Shown here: positions 30,627-45,001 of the stretch, one piece after another
How the letters are laid out: each line of letters begins with the position of its first letter
Numbering within the stretch: the first letter of the stretch is position 1
Assembly (NCBI GenBank): GCA_964489445.1
Contig: CAZAYU010000001.1
Location: forward strand, 274,276 to 338,275
Source: an uncultured Planctomycetia bacterium
Lineage (GTDB): Bacteria; Omnitrophota; Gorgyraeia; Duberdicusellales; 4484-171
Direction of reading: 5' to 3'
DNA length: 64,000 bases
Program-made: the position numbers and the translations under genes
Notes under the pieces: generated by a model
What the model saw: the letters and a program-made list of their open reading frames with translations, nothing else
The model's database searches: none
What the model was told of the DNA's origin: nothing

Positions 30627-31946
30627 TTAACCCCTGTTTTTCTTTAAAGGTCGAGCTGGAACACCAACTACAACCGCAGAAGGCAATACATCCTTAGTAA
30701 CTACGCTTCCTGCCCCAATAATCGCCTGTTTACCAATCTTAACCGGAGAAATTAATACAGCGTTTGATCCGATAAATGCTTCTTTACCAATGCGACTCTT
30801 ATGCTTATTCTTTCCATCATAATTAGCCACTACACTTCCTGCCCCGATATTCACCCTATCTTCAACAAAGACATCACCTAAATAGCCAAAATGCTTTACC
30901 TTTACATTCTTACCTATTTGGCTACGGTTGATCTCTAAGAAATTACCTAAACAAGTATTGTTCTTGATTCTGGTTCCTTTTCTGATTCGAACAAACGGCC
31001 CCAGGGAACAATTGCTGCCAATTATAACATCTTTCTCAATAAACGTAAAGGGATAAATTACAGTATTTTTACCGATTTTTGCCCCTACTTCTATAAAAAC
31101 ATTTTGAAAGTCAACAAGTTTAACCCCTCTATTGATAAGTTCATCTAAAACCCTCTCCCTCATAACTTTACCTGCCAATAGCAAATCTTTTGGTGTATTT
31201 ACCCCTAAAACTTCCTGGGAATCTGATAAAAAATAAGCTAATAGTCCATTTTTCTCTTCATAAGCTATCTTTATCATATCCGTAAAAAAATACTCTCTTT
31301 TCTGTGCATTAATCTTAATTTTAGATAAATTCTGTGATAGATACTTGCGATTAAAACAATACATCCCGCTATTAACTTCCTCCGAAATAAAGGCTTCTCT
31401 TGAATTAATTTGTTTGCTGTTTAACTGACACTTTTCTTTAATTTCCTTAACTTTTCCGTTTGAATCACGTAAAATAGCCCCTAATGAATTTTGCTCCTGA
31501 ACGCCGGCAGTAAGTACACATCCACTGGTCTTTTTATTCAAAAAGAAAGAAATAAATTTTTTGATTGTCTTGCTGGTAATCAATGGGGCATCCCCGCATA
31601 AAATCAAAACATTCTCTCTATTTACCTTCCCTAAGGCAACTTTAACAGCATCTGCAGTTCCCAGCAGTTTTTCTTGATAAACAATCTTGATCTTCCTTGT
31701 ATCAGGAAACATCTCTTTTAATATTTTTTCTACTAAACTACCTTTATATCCCAAAACTACAACTATCTCATCAATACAGTTATTTAAAGAAAGTAAAGCC
31801 CGCAAGACATAATAGATTAAGGGATTTCCCATCAAATCATAAAGCACCTTAGGCTGGGCAGACTTCATCCTCGTTCCTTTCCCGGCAGCTAGTACTACCG
31901 CAGTAAACTTGTCTGGTGATTTAGCTACTTTAGTTTTTTTCTTCAT
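30627..31946 (-). CDS. glmU: Bifunctional GlcNAc-1-P uridyltransferase / GlcN-1-P acetyltransferase
   Basis: 439 aa. N-terminal nucleotidyltransferase (LAAGKGTRM). C-terminal LbH acetyltransferase. Confidence 0.9.
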   Translation of the reverse strand: MKKKTKVAKSPDKFTAVVLAAGKGTRMKSAQPKVLYDLMGNPLIYYVLRALLSLNNCIDEIVVVLGYKGSLVEKILKEMFPDTRKIKIVYQEKLLGTADAVKVALGKVNRENVLILCGDAPLITSKTIKKFISFFLNKKTSGCVLTAGVQEQNSLGAILRDSNGKVKEIKEKCQLNSKQINSREAFISEEVNSGMYCFNRKYLSQNLSKIKINAQKREYFFTDMIKIAYEEKNGLLAYFLSDSQEVLGVNTPKDLLLAGKVMRERVLDELINRGVKLVDFQNVFIEVGAKIGKNTVIYPFTFIEKDVIIGSNCSLGPFVRIRKGTRIKNNTCLGNFLEINRSQIGKNVKVKHFGYLGDVFVEDRVNIGAGSVVANYDGKNKHKSRIGKEAFIGSNAVLISPVKIGKQAIIGAGSVVTKDVLPSAVVVGVPARPLKKNRG

Positions 31947-32120
31947 TACTTTCTCCAGTGGATGTTTTAAGATACTTGAATTACTTTATCTGATATCCAC
32001 TTTAGATTTTTATTATACTGATTATTACAAACAATACAATAAGCTTTTATCTAACATTCACTATAAACTTTTGAAGTATTTTACCTCAGATTTATAAATT
32101 TTGAAATATTTTAATTACTC

Positions 32121-32738
32121 TTATTTTGCGGAAATCACCACAAAGCCACCTTCTCCGAATCCCTCTTTGGGTTTTTGCAATGATTTTATATTTTGCGGCA
32201 GATTGAATATTGTCTGCTGATATCTAATCTGTTTAAAGCCTAATTCTTCCAGCCAATCAGTTAATTGTTTTACGCTAAAGAATGTCGCTTTTTTATAAAA
32301 CAAACTTTTTTTACCTCTGTAAAATTTACCTAAAAAACTCTGTTTATCCACAATCCCTAAGATCAACTTCCCTTTTTCCTTCAAGACTCTTCTAGCTTCT
32401 GTCAATACTTTTAACGGGTCGTTCACAAAACACAAAGCAATAATTATCACTACGTAATCAAATTCATCCTGCCAAAAAGAAAGATCCTCCCCCACGCCTA
32501 AACACACACTAATTCCTCTGCGCTTGGCAATATTTATCATCTTCAGTGACGGATCAATCCCTAAGGAAATTCCTAACTTTTCCGCAAATCGGCCTGTCCC
32601 TACTCCTATTTCCAATCCTTTTTTGTTTCTTGGAACAACTTTCTTTAGCGCCTCTACTTCCGACAAATAAACAAATTCATGTTCATCATACCAACGATCA
32701 TACTGTTTATACTTAGAATCAAATACACTCATTGACAA
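32121..32738 (-). CDS. Class I SAM-dependent methyltransferase
   Basis: 205 aa. Motif I LEIGVGTG. Confidence 0.7.
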   Translation of the reverse strand: MSMSVFDSKYKQYDRWYDEHEFVYLSEVEALKKVVPRNKKGLEIGVGTGRFAEKLGISLGIDPSLKMINIAKRRGISVCLGVGEDLSFWQDEFDYVVIIIALCFVNDPLKVLTEARRVLKEKGKLILGIVDKQSFLGKFYRGKKSLFYKKATFFSVKQLTDWLEELGFKQIRYQQTIFNLPQNIKSLQKPKEGFGEGGFVVISAK

Positions 32739-32741
32739 TAT

Positions 32742-33053
32742 CTAGATTTCTCCCCACCAACCATCATAAAACTTCTGCAGATGTTTATAGAAATCTTCAC
32801 CGTAAGAATTTCGTCTAACATCTTTCTCTTTAAAAGAATACCTGTATCCGGCGCAATATGCTGATAATAAATCCTTGGAAGCAGCAATTTTTTTAAACAT
32901 TGCTTCATGCTCATGTTTTTTTGTATCATTGCATCTATCGGGATGATATTTTAGAGCAAGTTTGCGATACGCTGAATGAATTTTCTTTAAAGTGGCATAT
33001 TCACTCAACCCTAATATTTTTCTTGCTTGATCAATTTCTTTAAAATCCGCCAT
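32742..33053 (-). CDS. J-domain (DnaJ-like) protein
   Basis: 103 aa. HPD tripeptide in a J-domain context (LALKYHPDR). Confidence 0.7.
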   Translation of the reverse strand: MADFKEIDQARKILGLSEYATLKKIHSAYRKLALKYHPDRCNDTKKHEHEAMFKKIAASKDLLSAYCAGYRYSFKEKDVRRNSYGEDFYKHLQKFYDGWWGEI

Positions 33054-33145
33054 TTTAAAATCCTCAGCCTACCCTTTGATATCACTTGGCATAACTTTAT
33101 CTATAAGCTTTTTTGCTTCCCAGCTTAAAAAAATCTAAGTTTCGA

Positions 33146-33349
33146 TTAAAAACAAGTAGGGCACGTACCAGTAGAACAACTCGAACCACTTTGTTTGCCA
33201 GATTTACCCATGCTAAACGTCCCAAAGGTTTTTTGAATCTTTTTACTACCGCACTTTTGGCACTTAATCAAAGATTTTTCCTGAGTTACACCTACCAATA
33301 AATCAAACTTTTCTCCGCATTGTTTACAAATATAACTATATATTGGCAT
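33146..33349 (-). CDS. FmdB-family zinc-ribbon protein
   Basis: 67 aa. CxxC ... CxxC pairs with an FmdB-like N-terminus (YSYICKQCGEKF). Confidence 0.65.
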   Translation of the reverse strand: MPIYSYICKQCGEKFDLLVGVTQEKSLIKCQKCGSKKIQKTFGTFSMGKSGKQSGSSCSTGTCPTCF

Positions 33350-33488
33350 GTCCTCTCTCTCCTTTATTTATAAAATTTATTACCTCTGAAAATAGCTTCT
33401 ACTCTCGGACTTGTTCTCTATTTTCTTTGACCAAGGCAAGATTTCTCTTATCTCTTTGGCTTTTCCTATTCAAGGATTTTATTATTTC

Positions 33489-34397
33489 TTAGTCCTGCAG
33501 CTTATTCCAAATACCCTTGATCATTTCTGTGCTTTCCTCAGCGGCGTATTCAACTATTGTTTTACCATTGACCATTGCCTCTACTATTTTCTTATCGAAT
33601 CTTAATTTACCAACAAACGGAACATTTTCTCTCTGACAATAGCTTTCTATTTTTTCACTCATTTGAATATTTAAATCATACTTATTGACCATCAATTTAA
33701 CCGGCACCTTGAAATGCTTGGCAACCTTAATAACTCGATCAGCATCATGCAACCCGGAAATAGTCGGTTCAGTTACTACCAACGCACAATCTACACCGCT
33801 TAAAGAAGCAATTACCGGACAGCCAATCCCCGGTGAGCCATCAATAATTACATAATCAGCGTTGTTCATTTTAGCTATTTCTTTTGCTTTTTCTCTTACT
33901 AAGAAAACTAATTTTCCGGAATTCTCCTCAGCAATTCCTAACCGAGCATGAACCATAGGACCAAATCGAGTATCTGATACATACCATTCTCCAGATAAAT
34001 TTTCTTTCATTTCTATCGCTTGTTGTGGACAAGCAAAACTACAGAACGCACATCCTTCACAAGCCACCGGATCAACACTGTAAGCACTATTGGCCACGCC
34101 GTCTTCTAAAGCAAAATCTATAGCAAAAAACCGACATAACTTTCTACACAACCCGCATTTATTACACTTGTCTTTATCAATAAAAGCAGTTACTCCACTT
34201 CTAAATTCATGTTTTTCTTTTATTTCGGGCTTAAGCAATAAATGTAAATCCGCAGCATCAACATCACAATCAACCATAACTTTTCCGCGATGAAACAATC
34301 TATCATTATTATAATTATTAGCTAAAGCGGCAAAACTTGCCGTAATTACTGTTTTTCCTGTTCCTCCTTTCCCGCTAATAACTACAATCTGTTTCAT
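33489..34397 (-). CDS. MinD/Mrp-superfamily P-loop ATPase with inserted 4Fe-4S ferredoxin domain (COG1149-like)
   Basis: 302 aa. Deviant Walker A GKGGTGKT. Two Cys clusters (CNKCGLCRKLC ... CEGCAFCSFACP). Confidence 0.75.
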   Translation of the reverse strand: MKQIVVISGKGGTGKTVITASFAALANNYNNDRLFHRGKVMVDCDVDAADLHLLLKPEIKEKHEFRSGVTAFIDKDKCNKCGLCRKLCRFFAIDFALEDGVANSAYSVDPVACEGCAFCSFACPQQAIEMKENLSGEWYVSDTRFGPMVHARLGIAEENSGKLVFLVREKAKEIAKMNNADYVIIDGSPGIGCPVIASLSGVDCALVVTEPTISGLHDADRVIKVAKHFKVPVKLMVNKYDLNIQMSEKIESYCQRENVPFVGKLRFDKKIVEAMVNGKTIVEYAAEESTEMIKGIWNKLQD

Positions 34398-34405
34398 ATT
34401 TTTCC

Positions 34406-35752
34406 TTATATTTGGCCGTTAGCATTTTCTGCCGCCAACACCACCGGATACATCGTAGGCGAGCTAGTTAAATAAGGATGAGTGGCCATTTGCAACGTTT
34501 CTAGCTCCGTAGAAGACATCCTTTTTTGGATAGCAACCCCGATTAGATTTATCATCTCCCCACAAGATATTCCTCCTATTACCTGACCGCCTAAAATAAT
34601 TCCTGATTTACGAGAAAAAATCAGTTTCACTTTAATATTACTTGCACCGGGCAAAGTGCCTGGATGTTTATCTACACCAGAAGCTACCCCGATTACTATT
34701 TCAAACCCCTCTTCTTTGGCACTATTCTCGGTTAAGCCAGCTGAACCTAAAACTAAGCCGTCAATATAAGTAGAATAAATAGCAATCGTCCCTTTATTCT
34801 CTCTAATCACTTTTAATGTGTAAAGATTAGCACCGGCAATTCTTGCTTCCGCAGTTGCGGTAGAAGCAAGCATAACCGGTATATCTCTGCGAGTATAGAA
34901 ATCCCTTTTTCCGACACAATCACCTACAGCAAGAATATCAGGATCACTCGTACGCATATACTCATCTACCCATATACCATGTTTCCTGCCCAAATCTAAT
35001 CCCGCTTCAGCTGCCAATTTAGTATTGGAAACCGCGCCCACACCCAAAATAACACTATCAATGTCTATTTCTTTACCATCAGAAAAACACACCTTTTCCA
35101 CTTTTCCATTGCCTTTAATCTCTTCTACCCGGGTACCAGTCAATACATTAACCTTGCAACTTCTAAGCTTTTCCTCAACAACTTTAGAAAATTCCGCATC
35201 AAAAGAGTTCGCTAAAAGCTGAGGAAGCGTTTCCGCTAGATAAACATTCAAGGTGCCTATTTTAGAAATCTCATCAGCAAATTCTACTCCAATAAACCCT
35301 CCTCCTAGAATTAAAACATTTTTCGCTTTTTTAATTTCAAGAATAACATTTTTTAAGTAATCCATATCCTTGTATACTGGATAAACTCCCTTCTTATCAA
35401 TCCCACGAATAGGCAACATGATCGGCGTTGAACCAATTGCTAAAACTAATTTTTCATAAGAATAATTTTGCCCGCTTTTAGTAATAACTTGTTTTTGCTC
35501 GCGGTCTATCCTAATCACCTCATCTATCACTATCCCTACGTTGTTCTTCTCCAACGCCGTATTAGCCAGTTTATTATCATCAGGATTCTTTAAGCTGGCA
35601 AACATATAAGGTATACCACAAGGAATACACCCATTACCTATGCTTTTTATCAATAAAATTTTCTTATCCGGATAATACCTTTTCGCGGTTATAGCGCTTA
35701 TTACTCCCGCAGGACCACCACCAACTACCAAAATATCTGTTTTCTTCCCCAT
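34406..35752 (-). CDS. FAD-dependent pyridine nucleotide-disulfide oxidoreductase, CoA-disulfide reductase / NADH oxidase family, with an extra CxxC
   Basis: 448 aa. GGGPAG FAD motif. The redox Cys lies in a CoADR-like context (PCGIPY), with an additional Cys three residues upstream (CIPC). Confidence 0.75.
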   Translation of the reverse strand: MGKKTDILVVGGGPAGVISAITAKRYYPDKKILLIKSIGNGCIPCGIPYMFASLKNPDDNKLANTALEKNNVGIVIDEVIRIDREQKQVITKSGQNYSYEKLVLAIGSTPIMLPIRGIDKKGVYPVYKDMDYLKNVILEIKKAKNVLILGGGFIGVEFADEISKIGTLNVYLAETLPQLLANSFDAEFSKVVEEKLRSCKVNVLTGTRVEEIKGNGKVEKVCFSDGKEIDIDSVILGVGAVSNTKLAAEAGLDLGRKHGIWVDEYMRTSDPDILAVGDCVGKRDFYTRRDIPVMLASTATAEARIAGANLYTLKVIRENKGTIAIYSTYIDGLVLGSAGLTENSAKEEGFEIVIGVASGVDKHPGTLPGASNIKVKLIFSRKSGIILGGQVIGGISCGEMINLIGVAIQKRMSSTELETLQMATHPYLTSSPTMYPVVLAAENANGQI

Positions 35753-35762
35753 ACAAAACTCC

Positions 35763-36161
35763 TTATGTTGATTTCAGCATTACACATAATCCATAAATGA
35801 TTTCCATGCCGTTTCTTTTGCAAAAATCAATAACTTCAATACTTTCCGCACCCGGCTGAACCCAGATTCTGTTTATTCCCTGTTGCTTACACTCACCAAC
35901 AATGTTCAATGTAACTTTCGGGGGAGTAACAATGTTTGCAACATTAACTTCTTCGGAGATATCCCTCACATGTCGATAGCATTTCACTCCCTCAAACTCA
36001 GTTAATCCCGGATTAACCGGAAACACCTTATATCCTTTTTTGGTTAACTGTTTAAAAATGCGATAAGCATATTTTTGTTCATTTCGGAATGAGCCAAAAA
36101 CTGCAAAATTCTTTTGGCTTAAAAAATCACTAACTAAATCATCCATTTTTTCCAAAATCAA
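35763..36161 (-). CDS. CoA-binding domain protein
   Basis: 132 aa. Resembles the small CoA-binding Rossmann-like family (FAVFGS ... KGYKVFPVNP). Confidence 0.7.
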   Translation of the reverse strand: MILEKMDDLVSDFLSQKNFAVFGSFRNEQKYAYRIFKQLTKKGYKVFPVNPGLTEFEGVKCYRHVRDISEEVNVANIVTPPKVTLNIVGECKQQGINRIWVQPGAESIEVIDFCKRNGMEIIYGLCVMLKST

Positions 36162-36993
36162 TTCCCGAGCATCGAAGCAATTTTCTAAATAATTCTTGAA
36201 ACTTCTGTTTGTATTCCGGCAAAGCTTCTACGATAGTTATTCCTTTTGAATAAGCAGACGCTATTTCTTTCTTAAACGGAAGCCTCATCAACACCGGGAT
36301 ACCCTGCTTAAAACAATATTCTTCTGTTTTATCATCTCCAAGATCAGAACGGTTTATTACAACACCAAAGGGAATTTTTAATTTTCTTAATACTTCAACT
36401 GCTAAAATTAGATCATTCAATCCGAAAGGCGTAGGCTCAGTAACTAAAATGCAAAAATCGCTTCCATCAATTGACGCAATTACCGGGCAAGATGTTCCCG
36501 GAGGCGCATCAATAATAGAAGTCTTGTCCTTATCTATATACTTCTTAACTGCTTTGATTAACGGCGGGGACATTGCCTGGCCAATATTTAATTTACCATG
36601 AACAAATTCTAAACCCTCTCTTTCCCCTGTTTCCAAAACACCAATTTCTTTGTTAACTTCACTAATTGCTTTTTCCGGACAAAAATAAGCACAAGAACCG
36701 CAGCCATGACATAATTCCGGAAAAACCAACACTGTATCTTTCAACAATGCTAAAGCATTGTACGCACAAACTTGCTTGCAGCGTCCACAAGCAATACACT
36801 TACTTTGATCAACCTCCGGAACGGGAATAAACACTTGTTTTTTCCCGTTAATTTTCGGTTTTACAAAAATATGCACATTGGGTTCTTCTACGTCACAATC
36901 TAAAATCTGGGTGTTGGGAATCGACAATGCTAGATTAACCGCAACTGTAGTTTTCCCGGTTCCCCCTTTTCCACTAGCAACTGAAATAATCAT
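36139..36993 (-). CDS. MinD/Mrp-superfamily P-loop ATPase with inserted 4Fe-4S ferredoxin domain (second copy)
   Basis: 284 aa. GKGGTGKT. Cys clusters CIACGRCKQVC ... CHGCGSCAYFCP. Confidence 0.75.
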   Translation of the reverse strand: MIISVASGKGGTGKTTVAVNLALSIPNTQILDCDVEEPNVHIFVKPKINGKKQVFIPVPEVDQSKCIACGRCKQVCAYNALALLKDTVLVFPELCHGCGSCAYFCPEKAISEVNKEIGVLETGEREGLEFVHGKLNIGQAMSPPLIKAVKKYIDKDKTSIIDAPPGTSCPVIASIDGSDFCILVTEPTPFGLNDLILAVEVLRKLKIPFGVVINRSDLGDDKTEEYCFKQGIPVLMRLPFKKEIASAYSKGITIVEALPEYKQKFQELFRKLLRCSGIDFGKNG

Positions 36994-37000
36994 ATCTCTC

Positions 37001-37603
37001 TCATCGGCAGACGATTATTCCTTCCTGAAATTTACTTTTGAACTTATCCAAGGAATATTTTCTACCAGTCAAATATTTTGCTATTTCTTTTAAACCTACA
37101 TTTCCCTGATCATGTCTTTTGCCATCCTGGCGGTGAATTCTGTCAACCAACTTAAATCCCTCTTCAGTAAAATCACTTAGTACTATTTTTCCTTTTAAAC
37201 TAGCTACTCTCATTAGTTCATCAATAGCCACATACGGATTAAAAAAATGATGAATTACATTTATAGCAATAACTACATCAAATAAGTTATTTTCAAATTT
37301 CAATTTTTCGGCATTAGCAATCTGAAAATCCACATTTTTTTCTAAGCCTAAACTTTCCAAACTCAATCTAGCAATTTTTTGTTCTTCGGCAGAAATATCC
37401 ACACTGACAAAACAAAACCCCTCTCTAGCTAAAACTAAAGTTGAATAGCCTTTACCTGTGCCAATTTCTAATATTTTCCCAGAAAGTGGATAAACTTTAT
37501 GAATAATGAATTTTCTTTCTGCTTCAATATCACAACCAAATTGCTTATACTTCTCTATTCTTTTCCGATATTCTGTTTGCAGCTCTTTGGCCCTATCATT
37601 CAT
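37001..37603 (-). CDS. Class I SAM-dependent methyltransferase
   Basis: 200 aa. Motif I ILEIGTGKG. Confidence 0.7.
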   Translation of the reverse strand: MNDRAKELQTEYRKRIEKYKQFGCDIEAERKFIIHKVYPLSGKILEIGTGKGYSTLVLAREGFCFVSVDISAEEQKIARLSLESLGLEKNVDFQIANAEKLKFENNLFDVVIAINVIHHFFNPYVAIDELMRVASLKGKIVLSDFTEEGFKLVDRIHRQDGKRHDQGNVGLKEIAKYLTGRKYSLDKFKSKFQEGIIVCR

Positions 37604-37607
37604 GGAA

Positions 37608-37832
37608 TCAAACCCTAACCATTTTTGCCCCGCATTTAGGACAATTTACTAATGTGCAAGGAGTTTGCGGCTGATGAGGTACTTTAGTACCACAAGCTGC
37701 ACACACACAATCTCCACCAGGGCCCCTACCTAAAGGACCATCACTCATGTTACCAGCACCTTGCCCCCGACCTATACCTCTACCTGTCCCCGGCCCTCCT
37801 CCGAAAGGCCCTGTTCCGTCTCCTCTTGGCAT
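37608..37832 (-). CDS. Glycine-rich DUF5320-like small protein with C-terminal zinc ribbon
   Basis: 74 aa. N-terminus MPRGDGTGPFGGGPGTGRG. C-terminus CxxC ... CxxC. Confidence 0.5.
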   Translation of the reverse strand: MPRGDGTGPFGGGPGTGRGIGRGQGAGNMSDGPLGRGPGGDCVCAACGTKVPHQPQTPCTLVNCPKCGAKMVRV

Positions 37833-37846
37833 AAATACCCCCTTTC

Positions 37847-38212
37847 TTAACTTGTTCCAAATTTAGAATCGACACTTGGACCGTCAGTTGTTTTAAATTC
37901 TCCTTGTTTATACTTTTCAATTACTTCTTTTACTGTTCCGGATGCACCGGTAATAATCTTGATTCCTGCCGCCTTTAAAGTCTGAAACGCGTTCGGCCCG
38001 ACATTTCCGGTAAGAACTACTTCAACTTTCTTTTCAGCAATAAGTTGACCTGATTGGATACCCGCTCCGCCTGAACTGTTGATGTTTGAATTGTTAACCG
38101 CTTCAAACTCCAATGTACCGGAATCAACAATAATAAAATATTGACATCTTCCAAACCGAGGATCAACGCTTGAATCTAAGTTGTCTCCTTGTGCAGTAAT
38201 ACAAATTTTCAT
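37847..38212 (-). CDS. NifX/NifB-like dinitrogenase FeMo-cofactor-family protein (PF02579-like)
   Basis: 121 aa. N-terminal pattern typical of the family (GRCQYFII ... TGNVGPNAFQTL). Confidence 0.75.
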   Translation of the reverse strand: MKICITAQGDNLDSSVDPRFGRCQYFIIVDSGTLEFEAVNNSNINSSGGAGIQSGQLIAEKKVEVVLTGNVGPNAFQTLKAAGIKIITGASGTVKEVIEKYKQGEFKTTDGPSVDSKFGTS

Positions 38213-38628
38213 CAGTTTATCTCCTTTTGTTCATGCTCACAATTATCTTCGTTGGGATGGTCGCAAGCTGTCTTTTCTGCGCCATACCCTTTTCCGGCCC
38301 CCGGATTACAAAGACTTTCCCCCCCTTGAAGCGTTCCTGACGCAACTTGTTGAGCTATTTCATCTATTTTGCCACTGATCCCCATTATTGCTTCAATTCC
38401 GCTTTCATCAAATAACATTTGAGCCCGTTGGCCCATACCGCCGGCAATAATCGCATTTACCCCTTTTTCTTTTAAAAACTGTGGGAGAAATCCCGGATGA
38501 TGCCCGGGATTATCAATAACCTCTTTGCTGATTATCTGTTTATTCTCTATTTCTAAAATCGTAAATGACGGACAACGCCCAAAATGAGCAGAAACAAAAT
38601 TACTATCTGTAGAAATCGCTACTTTCAA
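38212..38628 (-). CDS. NifX/NifB-like dinitrogenase FeMo-cofactor-family protein (second copy)
   Basis: 138 aa. HFGRCPSFTILE ... AGGMGQRA. Apparent TTG start after the SD GGAGGG. Its stop overlaps the next gene's start by 1 nt. Confidence 0.7.
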   Translation of the reverse strand: MKVAISTDSNFVSAHFGRCPSFTILEIENKQIISKEVIDNPGHHPGFLPQFLKEKGVNAIIAGGMGQRAQMLFDESGIEAIMGISGKIDEIAQQVASGTLQGGESLCNPGAGKGYGAEKTACDHPNEDNCEHEQKEIN

Positions 38629-38654
38629 ATTAACCCTCCTTAAAGTTCGGAAAT

Positions 38655-38689
38655 AAGGGGAAAATAAAGATACACTTTATTTTCCCCTT
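38655..38689 (-). promoter_or_regulatory. Perfect 15-bp inverted repeat (5-nt loop) between the first DUF5320 gene and the NifX-like genes; candidate attenuator or terminator
   Basis: aaggggaaaataaag-ataca-ctttattttcccctt read directly. Confidence 0.4.
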
Positions 38690-38704
38690 ATTTCTCTTTA
38701 CTCC

Positions 38705-39094
38705 TCATTCTCCTTCAGATCCTGAGTTAGCTTCCAGTTCTTTAATCCTTCTGGTTATCGCACTTATCTCTTCCTGCATAACTTGAGCCTCTTCTTTTAA
38801 AGCTCTAGCTTCATCCTGAGCCGACACAGCAGGTACATTATACAACGGATTTCCAGAGGAGACACCATAGCTATTAGGAGCTGCTGCTCTGCGCCATCCA
38901 AAGTTACGTCCAACCCCGCGTCCCCGGCTGAAACCTCTACCAAATCCCCTTCCATAACCAAACCCTTGGTTTGCTCCGGGAATATTGCCCACCAAATTCA
39001 TATAGCCCGGTATCGAATAGCCTGCGCAAACACCTGCTCTTCTCCCAGTCATTGGACCTGAACCCATTGGACCTGTTCTATCACCACCTGGCAT
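38705..39094 (-). CDS. Glycine-rich DUF5320-like protein with C-terminal coiled coil
   Basis: The ORF-track start is 47 codons upstream and overlaps fur. The internal ATG at 39094 is preceded by the SD GGGGTGA and opens with MPGGDRTGPMGSGPMTGRRAG, which matches the family N-terminus. Confidence 0.5.
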   Translation of the reverse strand: MPGGDRTGPMGSGPMTGRRAGVCAGYSIPGYMNLVGNIPGANQGFGYGRGFGRGFSRGRGVGRNFGWRRAAAPNSYGVSSGNPLYNVPAVSAQDEARALKEEAQVMQEEISAITRRIKELEANSGSEGE

Positions 39095-39107
39095 CGTAAT
39101 CACCCCC

Positions 39108-39584
39108 TTATTTTTGCATCCCCTGACACTTATCACACAACCCATAAAATTGAACAATATGTTTAATAATTTTAAAATTATACTTTCGGGAAAGCCCTTT
39201 TTCAATTCTACCCAACAACTCTGCCTCTTCATCAATAAAATCTGTATAGTCGACTACCTTCTGGCAACTTACACAAACTAAATGATGATGATGTGCCTTA
39301 TCTTTAGTTCCTCTGTTTAATTCATAGCGTGCCCGTCCATCACCAAAATCAAATCTATACACTAGTTTTAACTGTACTAATAATTCTAGAGTCCGGTATA
39401 TTGTAGATATTCCCGCTGAAGGATGAATTTTATGAACCTGATGATACACTTCTTCGGCGCTTAAATGTTTACTTGTCTGGGTGAGAACATCTAAAATTAC
39501 CTGCCGAGAAAGAGTTAGCCGATAGCCATGTCCTATAAATCTTCCCTGACATCCTCTCATACATCTACTAAACTTCCTGGGCAT
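39108..39584 (-). CDS. Fur-family metalloregulator (Fur/PerR/Zur type)
   Basis: 158 aa. Winged-helix region followed by HHHHLVCVSC ... CxxC metal sites. Confidence 0.8.
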   Translation of the reverse strand: MPRKFSRCMRGCQGRFIGHGYRLTLSRQVILDVLTQTSKHLSAEEVYHQVHKIHPSAGISTIYRTLELLVQLKLVYRFDFGDGRARYELNRGTKDKAHHHHLVCVSCQKVVDYTDFIDEEAELLGRIEKGLSRKYNFKIIKHIVQFYGLCDKCQGMQK

Positions 39585-39597
39585 TTATTCTCCTTAT

Positions 39598-39612
39598 TGA
39601 GAATGGTTCTCA
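39598..39612. promoter_or_regulatory. Fur-box-like 7-1-7 palindrome TGAGAAT-G-GTTCTCA immediately upstream of the fur-family gene's RBS
   Basis: Read directly. Resembles the TGATAAT-N-ATTATCA Fur/PerR box. Confidence 0.4.
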
Positions 39613-39714
39613 TTACCAATAAAATATACCATTTCTTTTTCCTCTTGTCAACAAGATAAATAAGGAATAAATTTCCTTAGCAGATTACGCTTATCTAGCC
39701 TCTTAATAGATATC

Positions 39715-40479
39715 TTATTTTAATTCTGCTAATTTTCCTATCTGCTGTTTTACTTTTATAATTCGTTGCTCAGGGAATGGATGGCTTCGTAAATAAACAG
39801 GAACTTTGCTTCCAGAGTCTCTTTCAATTTCTTGAAACTTATTGAATACTTTTATCGCACCATTAGGGTCAAATCCTGCCTTGTTCATAATTTCTACCCC
39901 TAAGCTATCCGCCTGATATTCATCCTGGCGAGAATATCCTAAGGTAATTAAATTTATCGCCTGCTGTGCACCATTATTTATTTGTGCATATTCCGGTTTA
40001 TCAACTAATATAGCCCCTAAAACAGAAACTAAGCTAATGCCTAAACTAGGCCCTAATCGTTTCACAGCATGCCTTGCATCTGTATGTCCGATTTCATGTG
40101 CCAACACAAAACTAAGCTCGTTCTTATTCATGATATCTAAAAGGCCCCGATAAACAAATACATGTCCTCCAGGCAGTGTAAAAGCATTGATCTGGTCTTC
40201 ATCAATAATATAAAATTGGTAATTAAGCTCTTTCCGATAGCTACAGGCAGATAGTGTTTCACCTAGCTCCACTACATAATTAGTTTTTTGTTTATCTTTT
40301 AAGATCTTATGTTTACTGATAAAATCTTTTGCTAGGTTATTTCCCCATTCAACTTCAGCCTTATCATTTATTAGGTAAGTTTCTTTTCTCCTAGTAGCTG
40401 CATTATACTGGGTTACGCAACCACAAAAAACCAACAATATAAATATCAGGCTGCATTTTTTTATCATTCTAAAATTCAT
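39715..40479 (-). CDS. M48-family zinc metalloprotease, lipoprotein
   Basis: 254 aa. Lipobox (LLVFCGC). HEIGH zinc motif. Confidence 0.8.
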   Translation of the reverse strand: MNFRMIKKCSLIFILLVFCGCVTQYNAATRRKETYLINDKAEVEWGNNLAKDFISKHKILKDKQKTNYVVELGETLSACSYRKELNYQFYIIDEDQINAFTLPGGHVFVYRGLLDIMNKNELSFVLAHEIGHTDARHAVKRLGPSLGISLVSVLGAILVDKPEYAQINNGAQQAINLITLGYSRQDEYQADSLGVEIMNKAGFDPNGAIKVFNKFQEIERDSGSKVPVYLRSHPFPEQRIIKVKQQIGKLAELK

Positions 40480-40914: not shown

Positions 40915-42192
40915 CTACATTTTCTCCTTACTGGAAAATGCACAGACATTTTCGTCAATAATCACATCCCTTAAACTAAGTGGCTTACTCAAACTAATTC
41001 CTTCTAGACTTCGACAGCGACTTAAGGCCACATAAAGCTGCCCGGAGCTAAACGCACCTCGGCCGATATCAATGGTCACGTTTTCAAAGGTTTGTCCTTG
41101 GCTTTTATGGATTGTAATTGCCCAGGCTAATTTTAACGGATATTGGGTAAACGATCCGTCAACCTCCTGTTCTATTGATTGAGTAAAATCGTCAAATATA
41201 TACTTTATCTTTTCCCATGTAAACTTTTCTAAAATATGCACCTGATTTTCAATACGAATCTTAACTGAACTATTACTAATTTCCGCAACTTCAGCTATTG
41301 TGCCGTTAACCCATCTTTTTTCTTTATCATTATTTAATAATATTACCCGTGCGCCTGCCTTTAAAAATAGTGTTAGCTCGGTAGGGTGTAGGCTCGGATT
41401 ATAGTTCTCACTTACTAAAGCGGAATATTGATATTGTTTAGAATCAATTTTTTCTAGAAAACTCTTATTTATTCGCTCAGCGTCTTTATTGGTTGTCGTC
41501 AAAGTAATATATTCTTTTTGGACATTACTATTGTTTACCCTTTTGTTCAATATAGCAATATCTTTATCGCTGGACTTGTTCCGGCGAATTCTACCTAATA
41601 AGTCAATAAACTTCTTATCTGTTTGCCGATATGTCCGGTTCAATGAAATTCGATGCAGTTCTATCTGATCCATAACATTGGCATTAAAAAAATACGAGTG
41701 CTCATAGTATTGTTTAACCAAATGTTGTATACTCCGTTCAATCACCGGAGGAAGCTGGAAAAGATCACCAAACAAAATTATTCTTACCCCACCAAAGGGA
41801 ATATCTATCTCTCCTCTATTGATTCTTAAAGAATAGTCTATCGCATCAAGGATATCTGCTCTAACCATTGAGGCCTCGTCAATTAGCAGCAGGTCGAGAT
41901 TCTTAATTATTTTCTTCTTATCCCGGTATAATTTTTTAACTTGTTTTTCTTGAAGAAAACCCAAAGGGAAACTAAAAAAAGAGTGTATGGTTTGACCTTC
42001 AACATTTATTGCCGCAATTCCGGTAGGAGCCAAAGTAACCACGTTTTTCTTAGTAATTTCCTTAAAATAGCGCAATAGTGTAGATTTTCCCGATCCGGCT
42101 TTTCCGGCAACAAATAGATGTTTGTCAGAATTTTCCATAAATTCTAACGGCTCCTTAAACTCACCGCAAAAATCAAAATCACTATTATCCAT
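40915..42192 (-). CDS. Pif1/RecD-like superfamily-1 DNA helicase
   Basis: 425 aa. Walker A GKAGSGKST. C-terminal HKSQGQTF motif typical of the RecD/Pif1 family. Confidence 0.7.
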   Translation of the reverse strand: MDNSDFDFCGEFKEPLEFMENSDKHLFVAGKAGSGKSTLLRYFKEITKKNVVTLAPTGIAAINVEGQTIHSFFSFPLGFLQEKQVKKLYRDKKKIIKNLDLLLIDEASMVRADILDAIDYSLRINRGEIDIPFGGVRIILFGDLFQLPPVIERSIQHLVKQYYEHSYFFNANVMDQIELHRISLNRTYRQTDKKFIDLLGRIRRNKSSDKDIAILNKRVNNSNVQKEYITLTTTNKDAERINKSFLEKIDSKQYQYSALVSENYNPSLHPTELTLFLKAGARVILLNNDKEKRWVNGTIAEVAEISNSSVKIRIENQVHILEKFTWEKIKYIFDDFTQSIEQEVDGSFTQYPLKLAWAITIHKSQGQTFENVTIDIGRGAFSSGQLYVALSRCRSLEGISLSKPLSLRDVIIDENVCAFSSKEKM

Positions 42193-44929: not shown

Positions 44930-45001
44930 CTGCCCGGCCTGGACTCGAACCAGGAAACTCAGATCCAAAACCTGATGTGTTACCTATTACACTACCGGGC
45001 A
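44930..45001 (-). tRNA. tRNA-Gln (anticodon UUG)
   Basis: Hand-folded cloverleaf. 7-bp acceptor TGCCCGG/CCGGGCA. D-stem GTGT/ACAC. Anticodon loop UUUUGGA. T-arm CCTGG-TTCGAGT-CCAGG. 72 nt. Confidence 0.8.

Follow-up and report, generated by a model that had tools for sequence, protein, structure and literature searches.

A Fur-headed gene cassette resembling the Desulfovibrio orange-protein module, with a possible role in handling metal-sulfide clusters

Ten genes on the minus strand of the window (the whole 64,000-nucleotide stretch of DNA analyzed here, from an uncultured anaerobe) form a compact cassette. Our preferred reading, to which we give a probability of roughly one half, is that it represents the ORP (orange-protein) module of anaerobes in a Fur-autoregulated variant and most likely serves to assemble, hold, or hand on Fe-S or metal-sulfide clusters. 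The cassette is thus read as a widely shared variant of the Desulfovibrio-type ORP system, to which a CoA-disulfide-reductase-like flavoprotein has been added.

RESULTS

The gene run extends from 39584 to 33489 (Table 1), and its genes overlap or are separated by gaps of 14 bp or less, apart from one 76-bp spacer that contains a hairpin. The Fur-family regulator gene is followed after 13 bp by the gene for DUF5320L and, past the 76-bp gap, by that for NifXa, which overlaps the NifXb gene by 1 bp. DUF5320S lies 14 bp beyond NifXb, MTase1 4 bp beyond DUF5320S, and MinDFd1 a further 7 bp along. The MinDFd1 and CoA_binding_2 genes overlap, and gaps of 10 bp and 8 bp flank the flavoprotein gene on its CoA_binding_2 and MinDFd2 sides, respectively. 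Coordinates, spacing, and Pfam domain calls all bear out the tightly packed ten-gene run reported in a preliminary description of this DNA, and each of the domain assignments made there held in Pfam and NCBIfam profile searches. Its title left one of the ten genes, the methyltransferase, unnamed.

Table 1. Genes and regulatory features of the cassette and its downstream neighbors (positions in the window)
Feature	Position	Strand	Supporting match or detail
Fur-family regulator, 158 aa, cassette gene 1	39108..39584	-	PF01475, 6.7e-30
DUF5320L (long form), 129 aa	38705..39094	-	PF17253, 1e-25
NifX-like A (NifXa)	38212..38628	-	PF02579, 7e-24
NifX-like B (NifXb), 121 aa, orange-protein (ORP/Orp8) type	37847..38212	-	PF02579, 2e-26
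DUF5320S (short form), 74 aa	37608..37832	-	PF17253 sub-threshold, 22.8 vs 27 bits
Class I SAM-dependent methyltransferase (MTase1), accessory	37001..37603	-	Methyltransf_11, 2e-18
MinD-ferredoxin ATPase 1 (MinDFd1)	36139..36993	-	ParA/NUBPL 6e-16, CbiA, Fer4 x2
CoA_binding_2 protein, 127 aa from ATG, accessory	35763..36146 (or 36161)	-	PF13380, 1e-31
FAD/NAD(P)H flavoprotein, 448 aa	34406..35752	-	Pyr_redox_2 5e-60, Pyr_redox, Pyr_redox_dim
MinD-ferredoxin ATPase 2 (MinDFd2)	33489..34397	-	ParA 8e-14, CbiA, Fer4
FmdB-type zinc ribbon protein, accessory	33146..33349	-	Zn_ribbon_8, 1e-13
Small J-domain protein, accessory	32742..33053	-	DnaJ domain 3e-14, HPD motif
Second class I SAM methyltransferase (MTase2), accessory	32121..32738	-	Methyltransf_11, 5e-16
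Sigma-70-like promoter	39623..39651	-	TTGACA-17-TATATT, upstream TG
7-1-7 Fur-box-like operator	39598..39612	.	TGAGAAC-C-ATTCTCA, directly 3' of -10 hexamer
20-bp stem-loop, DUF5320L/NifXa spacer	38650..38694	-	dG -31.3 kcal/mol, z = -4.6

The core of the cassette is the Desulfovibrio ORP set, namely two MinD-ferredoxin ATPases, an ORP-type protein, and a second NifX-like protein (PMC6345978). The statement that no function had been defined for this gene combination overlooked that published cluster. Compared with it, the cassette has two new elements, a regulator of the Fur family and a flavoprotein whose gene sits between those for the ATPases. The best solved relative of NifXb is the D. gigas ORP (2wfb, 7.5e-24), which it matches over its full length. 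NifXa has its best NCBIfam match in the C-terminal domain of MrpORP (positions 265-364, 2.5e-29) and its nearest solved structures in TM1816/TM1290 (1e-16), and its conserved motifs SAHFGRCP and C...CDHP parallel the published CxHFGHCE and CDH motifs (PMC6345978). Both NifX-like proteins are acidic, with pIs of 5.0 (NifXa) and 5.4 (NifXb). The D. vulgaris proteins Orp3, Orp4, and Orp8 copurify with one another and take Fe-S clusters from MrpORP, whose C-terminal domain binds such a cluster in vitro (PMC6345978). What the D. gigas orange protein carries is not an Fe-S cluster but the Mo-Cu-S cluster [S2MoS2CuS2MoS2]3- (PMC6345978).

Both ATPases are MinD-type P-loop proteins with an inserted 2x[4Fe-4S] ferredoxin domain, which is the architecture of Orp3 and Orp4. 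MinDFd1 conserves GKGGTGKTT, DCDVEEPN, two CxxCxxCxxxC motifs, and PPGTSCPV, and its paralogue MinDFd2 (2e-44) conserves DCDVDAADLH and PGIGCPVIAS. A search for solved relatives of MinDFd1 that combine MinD with an inserted ferredoxin domain found none, and the cysteines of the MinD-ferredoxin ATPases align weakly with those of NifH.

Conservation was surveyed in 80 genome loci, with the flavoprotein as the anchor, and percentages refer to loci with enough flanking sequence (eligible loci). The gene order is kept in genomes labeled Omnitrophota, Planctomycetota, Elusimicrobia, Auribacterota, and others. Dozens of genomes from several phyla share this gene order, operator, and placement of the hairpin, so the arrangement reflects more than chance. 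Of the eligible loci, 81% have a MinD-ferredoxin gene upstream of the flavoprotein gene and 79% (54/68) have one downstream; NifXb is present in 77%, DUF5320L in 63%, Fur in 62%, MTase1 in 28%, and CoA_binding_2 in 17% (12/71). The preliminary description had made its interpretation depend on co-conservation in related genomes, and since the genes are co-conserved in these loci, it stands on that point. The three trailing genes that it regarded as possible accessories do recur downstream (MTase2 in 50%, DnaJ in 32%, and the zinc ribbon in 22% of eligible loci). The cassette lacks a cysteine desulfurase, and it has neither a U-type nor a SufB-type scaffold. FeoA and FeoB genes adjoin it in a few loci, a thioredoxin gene does so in 8-12 loci and also in locus L089, and a gene for a NicO metal transporter adjoins the Fur-DUF5320 unit in L088.

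By sequence comparison, the regulator resembles true Fur more than PerR or Zur. Its nearest solved structures are true Fur proteins (9ire, 1e-27), followed by PerR (2fe3, 1e-14) and Zur (3e-12); on NCBIfam it scores 127 bits for Fur versus 88 for PerR, below each equivalog cut-off. The motif HHHHLxCxxC and a C-terminal CxxC are conserved. The promoter is the best sigma-70-like site within 31900-40000 (11/12 matches), and the operator is the one place in the 64 kb that fits the family pattern, against 0.04-0.28 fits expected by chance. In 24 of 25 related loci, a palindrome agreeing at 8 or more of 12 positions, with a consensus of approximately TGrrAAyCATTwTCA, stands some 30 bp ahead of the start of Fur, and so the Fur-box-like palindrome described at the regulator's own promoter is both real and conserved. 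PerR boxes start with TTA, whereas the half-sites of Fur boxes have the form TG...CA, as does the half-site found here.

The spacer hairpin also has counterparts elsewhere. In related loci, the 75 nt past the DUF5320L stop fold with a median of -22.9 kcal/mol, and the corresponding folds past other cassette genes range from -10.6 to -14.3 kcal/mol. Helices of 9 bp or more follow the DUF5320L stop in 22 of 35 loci, with sequences that vary by locus, and the spacer hairpin has no Rfam match above threshold. A strong hairpin kept 3' of gene 2 suggests two expression tiers instead of a uniform operon; the tight packing behind the single-operon claim is genuine, but uniform expression is not what the hairpin favors.

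The best solved relatives of the flavoprotein are 6pfz (1e-51), the CoA-persulfide reductase 8a56, and the Pyrococcus CoADRs, and homologues 67-80% identical to the window protein occur in all phyla sampled. Its invariant Cys45 aligns with the catalytic Cys of its CoADR and persulfide-reductase relatives. The curated CoADR cut-off is far from reached (226 versus 578.8 bits, TIGR03385). The CxxC that had been presented as a feature of the protein is lineage-specific, as just 33 of the 80 related loci and 56 of the 120 homologues keep its first Cys, and Cys45 is the sole invariant Cys. Pro occupies the position of His10 of NADH peroxidase. Several sources call the homologues "NADH oxidase." The flavoprotein is missing from the otherwise identical Fur-type cassette L089, where a CoA_binding_2 gene lies between the two ATPase genes, and from clusters with OrpR-like regulators; it is therefore an add-on and not a core part. 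CoA_binding_2, DUF89/ARMT1-like, 4HBT thioesterase, and PanD genes give cassette variants a recurrent CoA theme.

DUF5320L consists of a cationic, disordered region rich in Gly, Arg, and aromatic residues, with one invariant Cys (Cys23), followed by an acidic C-terminal helix. Residues 1-85 contain 27% G, 12% R, and 12% aromatic residues at a pI of 11.4, and the C-terminal part has a pI of 4.5; family medians for the N-terminal region are 31% G, 11% R, 18% aromatic, 11% P, one Cys, and a pI of about 10. AlphaFold2 gives a pLDDT of about 48 for residues 1-90 and of 82-93 for a helix at 92-128. DUF5320S has a Gly/Arg-rich N terminus and a CxCxxC...H...C...CxxC knuckle, and 44 sequences keep the motifs MPxGDGTGP and CxCPxCG-x4-H-x2-GxPC-x4-CPKCG, which also occur in a Zixibacteria cluster headed by an OrpR-like regulator. 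DUF5320L and the short Cys-rich form are likewise found inside clusters headed by an OrpR-like PAS-sigma54 activator (L087 and L090), and the DUF5320L gene adjoins NifX-like genes in all architectures seen.

DISCUSSION

The preliminary interpretation holds in part: domains, co-conservation, and operator stand, but the CxxC and the absence of a defined function do not. Mobilization of Fe-S or sulfane sulfur with CoA as the carrier, as it proposed, can reasonably be inferred. In Thermococcales, three proteins are co-induced by elemental sulfur, namely NSR, which is a sulfur reductase of the CoADR type, the ATPase SipB, and the NifX-like IssA/SipA (PMC4463584); IssA serves to store Fe and S (PMC5524996). 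When Methanococcus voltae grows on pyrite, NifX-like proteins of the IssA clade are up, alongside signs of Fe limitation (PMC9431491).

These systems raise an alternative that we regard as unlikely, in which the locus is a split IssA that stores or mobilizes iron sulfide: the NifX-like proteins would nucleate an anionic thioferrate-like iron-sulfide polymer, the free-standing cationic DUF5320 protein would stand in for the tail that is fused to IssA, and the flavoprotein and ATPases would load the store or reductively dissolve it. The disordered N-terminal region of DUF5320L is close in composition to the 70-residue IssA tail, which has a pI of 10.7, contains the single Cys of IssA, and counts 15 Gly, 14 aromatic, 7 cationic, and 11 Pro residues (PMC5524996), but the likeness is one of composition only. 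Although the constant proximity to NifX-like genes, Fur-family control, nearby Feo genes in some loci, and the co-induction in Thermococcales also speak for it, the best 150 of 7137 DUF5320 clusters include no NifX-DUF5320 fusion, and NifXa and NifXb are acidic while the proposed IssA clade has a pI of at least 9. A cassette repressed by Fur, moreover, should be induced when iron is scarce; a typical store would behave the other way round, though mobilization would fit. A role in defense against, or repair after, oxidative or redox stress is similarly doubtful. A PerR-like regulator would then control a flavoprotein acting as an NADH oxidase/peroxidase or disulfide reductase that shields or re-reduces oxygen-labile ORP clusters, in keeping with the "NADH oxidase" label, the adjoining thioredoxin genes, and the switching off of D. 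vulgaris orp genes when redox potential rises (PMC8359166). The PerR model scores are real, but sub-threshold, and the regulator favors Fur on both measures; the operator is Fur-box-like, the peroxidase His is absent, and the nearest solved relatives of the flavoprotein are persulfide and CoA-disulfide reductases.

That the MinD-like ATPases place a septum or polar structure, with the metal clusters as redox sensors, strikes us as improbable. The ATPases do belong to the MinD/ParA family, and inactivation of the orp regulator OrpR (DVU2106) reportedly led to morphological defects in work by Fievet from 2011. MrpORP sits at the cell pole, and Orp3 and Orp4 have an amphipathic C-terminal helix (PMC6345978). 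However, the published proposal of a cell-division role for the ORP complex is itself tentative (PMC3897727, PMC4641369), the 80 loci contain no linked division genes, and Fur control, the flavoprotein, and the CoA-related and Feo genes indicate metal/sulfur chemistry. Least probable of all is the handling of thiomolybdate, thiotungstate, or copper, with the cassette trafficking or detoxifying Mo/W-Cu-S clusters like that of the D. gigas orange protein. NifXb is homologous to this Mo-Cu-S carrier along its full length (PMC6345978) and a NicO gene stands beside one Fur-DUF5320 unit, but the cassette and its variants contain neither a ModABC/Tup transporter nor molybdopterin genes, and the regulator is Fur-like, not ModE-like.

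Under the preferred reading of a Fur-autoregulated ORP-module variant, the Fur-family protein would bind the 7-1-7 operator overlapping its own promoter and free the operon as a metal signal, probably Fe(II), drops. The hairpin past fur-DUF5320L, as a partial terminator or mRNA stabilizer, could set these two genes at a different level. The two MinD-ferredoxin ATPases, each with 2x[4Fe-4S] and a conserved interface Cys (G-x-x-C-P-V), would heterodimerize, with ATP driving the exchange of clusters or electrons with the two acidic NifX-type proteins, the putative holders of metal-sulfide species. Using NAD(P)H, the single-Cys flavoprotein may reduce a disulfide, persulfide, or polysulfide, probably CoA-linked, and thereby supply local sulfide or reducing power, while the cationic disordered DUF5320 proteins might bind anionic clusters or the acidic NifX proteins. 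Counting against this reading are the missing desulfurase and scaffolds, the Mo-Cu-S cluster of the D. gigas orange protein, the dispensable flavoprotein and its low CoADR score, the low frequency of CoA_binding_2, and the weak cysteine alignment with NifH.

Among the other accessory genes, MTase1 reached no NCBIfam equivalog. An HscB-like co-chaperone role is possible for the small J-domain protein, which may bring in Hsp70 for cluster release. In 11 loci, a J-domain gene is the immediate upstream neighbor of the flavoprotein gene (median offset, -1026 bp), and in loci carrying MTase2, the latter is usually directly 3' of the J-domain gene.

Organization of the cassette

The cassette in the window is a new, widely distributed form of the already known orange protein (ORP) system and not a categorically new one. 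The preliminary description of this DNA was supported in part. Its run of ten minus-strand genes was confirmed, and every domain name it gave was upheld by Pfam, but the gene combination that it had treated as undefined has the ORP gene set as its core, as comparisons of NifXb, NifXa and the ATPases reveal, and the CxxC motif it assigned to the flavoprotein is not a feature of that family. The ten genes encode a Fur-family regulator, a long and a short DUF5320 protein (DUF5320L and DUF5320S), two NifX-like proteins (NifXa and NifXb), a methyltransferase (MTase1), two MinD-type ATPases with an inserted ferredoxin domain (MinDFd1 and MinDFd2), a CoA-binding protein and a flavoprotein; their start codons were chosen by sequence and public gene calls. 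Terminators were sought after the tenth gene and after the thirteenth, which ends a trailing group of three, and no convincing structure was seen at either place.

Features of the cassette, its surroundings and related loci (L-numbers), with the occurrence of each gene among loci anchored on the flavoprotein
Feature	Position (strand)	Assignment and evidence	Junction to next gene (bp)	Occurrence (% of loci with enough flanking sequence)
Cassette, ten ORFs	39584 to 33489 (minus)			
Fur		PF01475, 6.7e-30 (Pfam); 104 bits vs cut-off 23.1	+13	62
DUF5320L		PF17253, 1e-25 (Pfam); 91.2 bits vs gathering threshold 27	+76	63
NifXa		Nitro_FeMo-Co, PF02579, 7e-24 (Pfam)	-1	56
NifXb		Nitro_FeMo-Co, PF02579, 2e-26 (Pfam)	+14	77
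DUF5320S		Short, Gly/Arg-rich and Cys-rich; PF17253 sub-threshold (22.8 vs 27 bits)	+4	55
MTase1		Class I SAM methyltransferase (Pfam)	+7	28
MinDFd1		MinD/ParA-type ATPase, inserted two-cluster ferredoxin domain (Pfam)	8-bp overlap	81 (MinD-ferredoxin gene upstream of flavoprotein)
CoA-binding protein		CoA_binding_2, 1e-31 (Pfam)	+10	17
Flavoprotein		Pyr_redox_2 / Pyr_redox / Pyr_redox_dim, 5e-60 (Pfam)	+8	
MinDFd2		MinD/ParA-type ATPase, inserted two-cluster ferredoxin domain (Pfam)		79 (MinD-ferredoxin gene downstream of flavoprotein)
Zinc ribbon protein	downstream of cassette, same orientation	Zn_ribbon_8	preceding gap 139	22
J-domain protein	downstream of cassette, same orientation	J-domain	preceding gap 92	32
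MTase2	downstream of cassette, same orientation	Methyltransferase	preceding gap 3	50
Candidate operator	39612-39598	TGAGAAC-C-ATTCTCA, 7-1-7 inverted repeat of Fur-box type		
Second promoter-like site	39177-39205 (minus)	TTGAAA-17-TATAAT, 11/12 matches		
PIF1-like SF1 helicase gene	40915-42192 (minus)	PF05970, 1e-32		
tRNA	44930-45001			
Fur-type cassette without flavoprotein	L089:3813-11232	JGI 3300009329 contig		
Fur-type cassette with added genes	L092:6469-13884	3.36-Mb closed metagenomic genome		
Fur-DUF5320-methyltransferase unit	L088:4747-7960			
Two Fur-DUF5320 units	L068:3032-14182	One contig		
Second flavoprotein paralogue	L014:10086-11471			

Relationship to the ORP complex

Since 2011 the ORP complex has been recognized as an anaerobe-specific assembly that is required for normal growth and cell shape. 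In Desulfovibrio vulgaris, Orp3, Orp4, Orp5, Orp8 and Orp9 form this complex, the function of which is given only as "putatively cell division" (PMC6345978, PMC8359166, PMC3897727, PMC4641369). Orp3, Orp4 and Orp8 co-purify and take Fe-S clusters from MrpORP (PMC6345978), and the orp operons depend on sigma-54 and the redox-sensing activator OrpR and are switched off when the redox potential rises (PMC6345978, PMC8359166).

The cassette shares with this system an ORP-type single-domain PF02579 protein, NifXb, which resembles Orp8/ORP and matches the D. gigas orange protein (2wfb) with 7.5e-24 over residues 2-113 of 121. NifXa is a second PF02579 protein with the Cys/His motifs of the MrpORP "Di-Nase" domain. 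That C-terminal domain is its best NCBIfam match (2.5e-29), and NifXa scored 102.7 bits on NF041136, against a cut-off of 450, over positions 265-364 only. Its conserved motifs, SAHFGRCP and C...CDHP, parallel the CxHFGHCE and CDH of MrpORP, which are proposed to hold the Fe-S cluster of the Di-Nase domain (PMC6345978). Both systems also have two paralogous MinD-type ATPases; Pfam and motif matches place two [4Fe-4S] ferredoxin motifs in each of the cassette proteins, and MinDFd1 and MinDFd2 are likened to Orp3 and Orp4 by the published description of these as MinD-like proteins with two [4Fe-4S] motifs (PMC6345978). Both the cassette and the ORP system are restricted to anaerobes, and DUF5320 proteins are also found in clusters headed by an OrpR-like regulator (L087 and L090). 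A possible DUF5320 counterpart in Desulfovibrio, Orp7 (DVU2107), was considered, and the protein search gave no named Desulfovibrio match among the matches listed.

The cassette differs from the Desulfovibrio system in several respects. A Fur-family repressor with a sigma-70-type promoter takes the place of the sigma-54 activator OrpR, and the genes form one co-directional array, whereas the orp genes form two divergent operons. The cassette lacks the Mrp/NBP35 P-loop protein (Orp9/MrpORP), and between the ATPase genes it adds a flavoprotein resembling CoADR, accompanied or not by a CoA-binding protein and methyltransferase. Unlike in Desulfovibrio, the array is followed by genes for a J-domain protein and a second methyltransferase.

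The ATPases also differ from the Mrp/NBP35/ApbC Fe-S carriers. They scored 27 vs 348 bits on ApbC (NF008669) and about 51-53 vs 450 bits on MrpORP, and the CxxC of Mrp/NBP35 is absent; a ferredoxin domain is inserted instead, and the conserved ATPase motif is a single Cys in G-x-x-C-P-V. As in nitrogenase maturation and in Mrp carriers, ATPases of the MinD/NifH (SIMIBI) class are paired with NifX-domain cluster carriers, but the NifB radical-SAM domain, NifEN and NifDK are all absent from the cassette. A conserved Cys of the ATPases lies in a P-G-x-G-C context similar to that of the NifH cluster ligand Cys97. The match to NifH is weak (E = 0.002, Walker A region only), and homology at the cluster-ligand Cys was dropped because the local match is weak and not significant alone.

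Variants of the cassette

Sampled DUF5320 gene neighbourhoods yielded a set of variants (L087-L092), which showed that the ORP-type module has interchangeable regulators. L087 and L090 have a PAS-sigma54 activator similar to OrpR and lack the flavoprotein; in L087 the activator is followed by NifX, NifX, DUF5320, a short Cys-rich protein, two MinD-ferredoxin genes and NifX, while L090 has one NifX gene ahead of DUF5320. DUF134 is the first gene in L091. The L089 cassette is of the Fur type and runs Fur, DUF5320, NifX, NifX, a 75-aa protein, methyltransferase, MinD-ferredoxin, CoA_binding, MinD-ferredoxin, DUF89, MBL, thioredoxin, DnaJ and methyltransferase. Since it has no flavoprotein, the flavoprotein is an optional insertion and the CoA-binding gene can stay without it. 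L092 is another Fur-type cassette, with additional genes for a 57-aa ferredoxin, a 4HBT thioesterase, DUF169, aspartate decarboxylase (PanD), DUF89 and an MBL-fold hydrolase. It provides a second case, independent of the first, of CoA/pantetheine-related genes in this setting. From these neighbourhoods, therefore, the window holds a Fur-led ORP-type module with the flavoprotein inserted between the two ATPase genes. At L088, a Fur-DUF5320-methyltransferase unit lies directly 3' of DUF1007 and a gene for a NicO-type Ni/Co transporter; this contig stops ahead of the rest of the cassette.

Conservation across genomes

Scanning one genome per species for the flavoprotein gave 319 relatives, and the best 80 loci (L007-L086) were analyzed by searching their ORFs with the window proteins. 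The order Fur, DUF5320L, NifXb, MinDFd1, flavoprotein and MinDFd2 was kept in 16 of the 33 fully eligible loci, and only four loci held a solitary flavoprotein. The taxon labels include Omnitrophota, Planctomycetota (several classes), Elusimicrobia/Endomicrobiales, Auribacterota, Ratteibacteria and UBP3, with single MAGs labelled Clostridia, Actinomycetota, Anaerolineales, Methanosarcinales and Thermoplasmata. The closest named relatives of the window proteins belong to Candidatus Omnitrophota. Identity to these proteins is about equal in and outside Omnitrophota (71% for the flavoprotein and 40-68% for the others), and such conservation across the sampled phyla points to lateral spread of the cassette or to very strong constraint on it. 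This comparison carries a selection bias, as the loci were picked by similarity to the flavoprotein.

Relatives often carry further genes downstream of the second ATPase gene. Among the loci long enough to show them, these are DUF89/ARMT1-like genes (27/61), MBL-fold hydrolases (26/46) and radical SAM genes (23/52), with DUF2099, DUF169, thioredoxin and FeoA/FeoB in fewer loci each. None of these extension genes was found in the 64-kb window. In the archaeal-labelled MAGs (L010, L042 and L052; Methanosarcinales and Thermoplasmata), the cassette proteins share 52-76% identity with their bacterial counterparts, a similarity equal to that of bacteria from other phyla, and these cassettes reflect either inter-domain transfer or binning contamination.

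Proposed regulation by a Fur-type protein

The best sigma-70-like site of the whole region lies within 130 bp 5' of fur (TTGACA-17-TATATT, with TG upstream), and the candidate operator follows directly after its -10 hexamer. The family operator pattern has a single match in 64 kb, against 0.04 expected by chance. A search of the 64-kb window for further copies that could indicate a regulon found none, the lone one-mismatch match being inside a coding region. A palindrome that matches at 8 or more of 12 positions lies about 30 bp 5' of the Fur start codon in 24 of 25 related loci; its consensus is about TGrrAAyCATTwTCA. The pattern of conservation in these sequences marks the palindrome as the phylogenetic footprint of a putative autoregulatory operator.

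Judging by its sequence, the regulator resembles true Fur more closely than PerR or Zur. Solved structures ranked in the order true Fur (9ire, 1e-27), PerR (1e-14) and Zur (3e-12), and the Bacillus-type Fur model gave the best score (127 bits, cut-off 220), ahead of PerR (88 bits, cut-off 180). HHHHLxCxxC and a C-terminal CxxC are conserved. Because no curated equivalog cut-off was reached, the effector can only be presumed.

The 76-bp spacer 3' of the DUF5320L gene contains a 20-bp stem (dG -31.3 kcal/mol, z = -4.6). Across related loci, the 75 nt after the DUF5320L stop have a median fold of -22.9 kcal/mol, compared with -10.6 to -14.3 kcal/mol after each other cassette gene, and a helix of at least 9 bp is present in 22 of 35 loci. 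The hairpin sequences are unrelated between loci, so it is structure and position that are conserved. A clear U-tract is missing from the window hairpin and present in some relatives. A known RNA element was dropped as an explanation, as no Rfam family matched at threshold. The hairpin may be a partial terminator or an mRNA-stabilizing element, which would give fur-DUF5320L an expression level unlike that of the eight downstream genes. The second promoter-like site, near consensus, lies within the 3' end of fur, about 83 nt 5' of the DUF5320L start codon, and may be an internal promoter or a chance occurrence.

The flavoprotein

The flavoprotein has thousands of homologues of 448 aa, with identities from about 70% upward. 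Among solved structures, its best relatives are A. fulgidus NoxA-3 (6pfz, 1e-51), an NADH-dependent persulfide reductase, the CoA-persulfide reductase 8a56, and the Pyrococcus CoA-disulfide reductases. The motif IPCGIPY contains Cys45, which lines up with the catalytic Cys in 6pfz and 8a56 and is invariant in all 80 related loci. The upstream Cys of the supposed CxxC, three residues before Cys45, occurs in 33 of 80 loci and 56 of 120 homologues and is otherwise mostly Val or Ala, and we rejected CxxC as the defining redox or metal site. The association of this first Cys with the CoA-binding gene is only weak (odds ratio 5.4, p = 0.02, uncorrected for phylogeny). A Pro occupies the position of the catalytic His10 in NADH peroxidase.

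The flavoprotein shares, by sequence, the three-domain fold of group-3 reductases (CoA-disulfide reductase, CoADR, of Pyrococcus, 4fx9 and 3kd9, and of S. aureus, 1yqz; the NADH-dependent persulfide reductases Npsr, 3ntd, and 6pfz; and CoA-persulfide reductase, CoAPR, 8a56), with FAD, NAD(P)H and dimerization domains all present, and it likewise has a single redox Cys in xPCGIPY and no second redox disulfide. In contrast to these enzymes, it forms its own clade (67-80% identity across phyla), scores well below the CoADR cut-offs (TIGR03385, 226 vs 578.8 bits; NF007123, 220 vs 458 bits), and is encoded between two Fe-S ATPase genes. It is 448 aa long, ends with the dimerization domain and has no C-terminal rhodanese domain, whereas the solved Npsr and CoAPR chains are 551-588 aa long and include one. 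On its sequence features, it is best regarded as a separate clade within the single-Cys group-3 flavoprotein disulfide reductases, and its substrate is probably a disulfide or persulfide. The recurrent CoA-related neighbours (CoA_binding_2, DUF89, thioesterase and PanD) lend contextual support to a CoA-linked substrate; the DUF89 family includes phosphopantetheine phosphatases. A second, divergent paralogue of the flavoprotein, 455-461 aa long with the motif CATPYICCG and a score of about 200 bits, adjoins extra MinD-ferredoxin genes in both L068 and L014.

DUF5320 proteins and their likeness to IssA

DUF5320 is a large family (7137 clusters at 50% identity), and searches for a solved relative and for functional literature found neither. 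DUF5320L begins with the invariant motif MPGGDxTGPxGxGPMTGRxAGYCAGY, which holds one invariant Cys, and continues with RG/aromatic repeats and an acidic helix; AlphaFold2 predicted residues 1-90 to be disordered and 92-128 to be a confident helix. DUF5320S shares only this N-terminal motif with the long form and has a conserved CxCPxCG...H...GxPC...CPKCG knuckle. In the N-terminal two-thirds of DUF5320L, family medians are 31% G, 11% R, 18% aromatic, 11% P and 2% acidic residues, with a pI of about 10. These values are close to those published for the 70-residue tail of IssA, where Gly accounts for 15 residues, aromatic residues for 14, Pro for 11 and cationic residues for 7. The tail holds the only Cys of the protein, has a pI of 10.7 and has been proposed to envelop anionic thioferrate (PMC5524996). 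The likeness is one of composition and context only.

Like the IssA (SipA), SipB and NSR system, which serves sulfur-induced iron-sulfur storage in Pyrococcus and Thermococcus, the cassette combines a PF02579/IPR003731 protein with a cationic, disordered segment rich in Gly, aromatic residues and Arg and bearing one Cys. The archaeal system likewise includes an ATPase, and an NAD(P)H sulfur reductase of the CoADR family works under the same conditions (PMC5524996, PMC4463584), and sulfur co-induces NSR, IssA and SipB in Thermococcales (PMC4463584). It is conceivable that the cassette is a "split IssA", a previously unrecognized iron-sulfide handling system widespread in uncultured anaerobes. 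The acidic NifX-type proteins would seed an anionic Fe-S polymer or cluster pool, to be wrapped or condensed by the DUF5320 proteins, which are cationic, disordered and coiled-coil. The two ferredoxin-bearing ATPases and an NAD(P)H-/CoA-dependent persulfide-type reductase would load the store or reductively dissolve it, and the whole would be under Fur control. If true, this would supply the missing function of the Desulfovibrio ORP complex. We consider it unlikely. IssA proteins have a PF02579/IPR003731 domain with a fused cationic, Gly/aromatic-rich tail of pI at least 9, but NifXa has a pI of 5.0 and a Cys/His/acidic tail and NifXb a pI of 5.4 and a short tail; the IssA-like composition is carried instead by DUF5320L, a separate protein with a coiled-coil helix. 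The cassette genes are clustered and Fur-led, whereas the IssA system is under SurR. Fusions of NifX domains with DUF5320, sought as a link between the two, were absent among the best 120-150 matches of three protein searches.

Proposed role of the Fur-led ORP module

From the anatomy, conservation and homologies of the cassette, we infer the following steps for the Fur-led ORP module. Low iron would lead to Fur-type derepression. The two ATPases may act as an ATP-consuming heterodimer that transfers clusters or electrons onto the NifX-type carriers or off them, and the flavoprotein may reduce a CoA-linked disulfide or persulfide with NAD(P)H, yielding sulfide or reducing power. DUF5320 could be a cationic partner of anionic clusters or of the acidic NifX proteins, and the J-domain protein could be an HscB-like release factor. 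A role in Fe and S supply would be consistent with the parallels in Thermococcales and in Methanococcus voltae, which on pyrite raises its IssA-clade proteins with signs of Fe limitation (PMC9431491). The weak points of this mechanism are that the ORP complex itself has no proven function, that the D. gigas orange protein carries Mo-Cu-S, that the flavoprotein and CoA-binding gene are optional parts, and that the cassette contains no cysteine desulfurase or scaffold gene.

Single-domain PF02579 proteins, COG1149 ATPases and DUF5320 are among the commonest uncharacterized "anaerobe signature" families. The Fur-led form places the ORP core in physical linkage with a regulator of the iron type and its conserved candidate operator, a thiol/persulfide-type flavoprotein and CoA-related genes, and concrete experiments therefore become possible. 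A vague question about ORP becomes one that can be assayed: whether Fur binds in a metal-dependent way, whether persulfide or CoA disulfide is reduced, and which clusters the complex contains.

Surroundings of the cassette

The window matches a 214-kb JGI metagenome contig identically. Strand bias is extreme: the window has 48 ORFs of 200 aa or more, and 46 of them are encoded on the minus strand. Every 2-kb bin shows a negative GC skew, from -0.10 to -0.37. The GC content of the cassette region is 0.38-0.40, slightly above the window mean of about 0.35, and the window has one tRNA. The PIF1-like helicase gene, on this bacterial contig, is flanked by a radical SAM gene and a gene for a small protein without a Pfam match, and an M48 peptidase gene and the cassette lie downstream of it.
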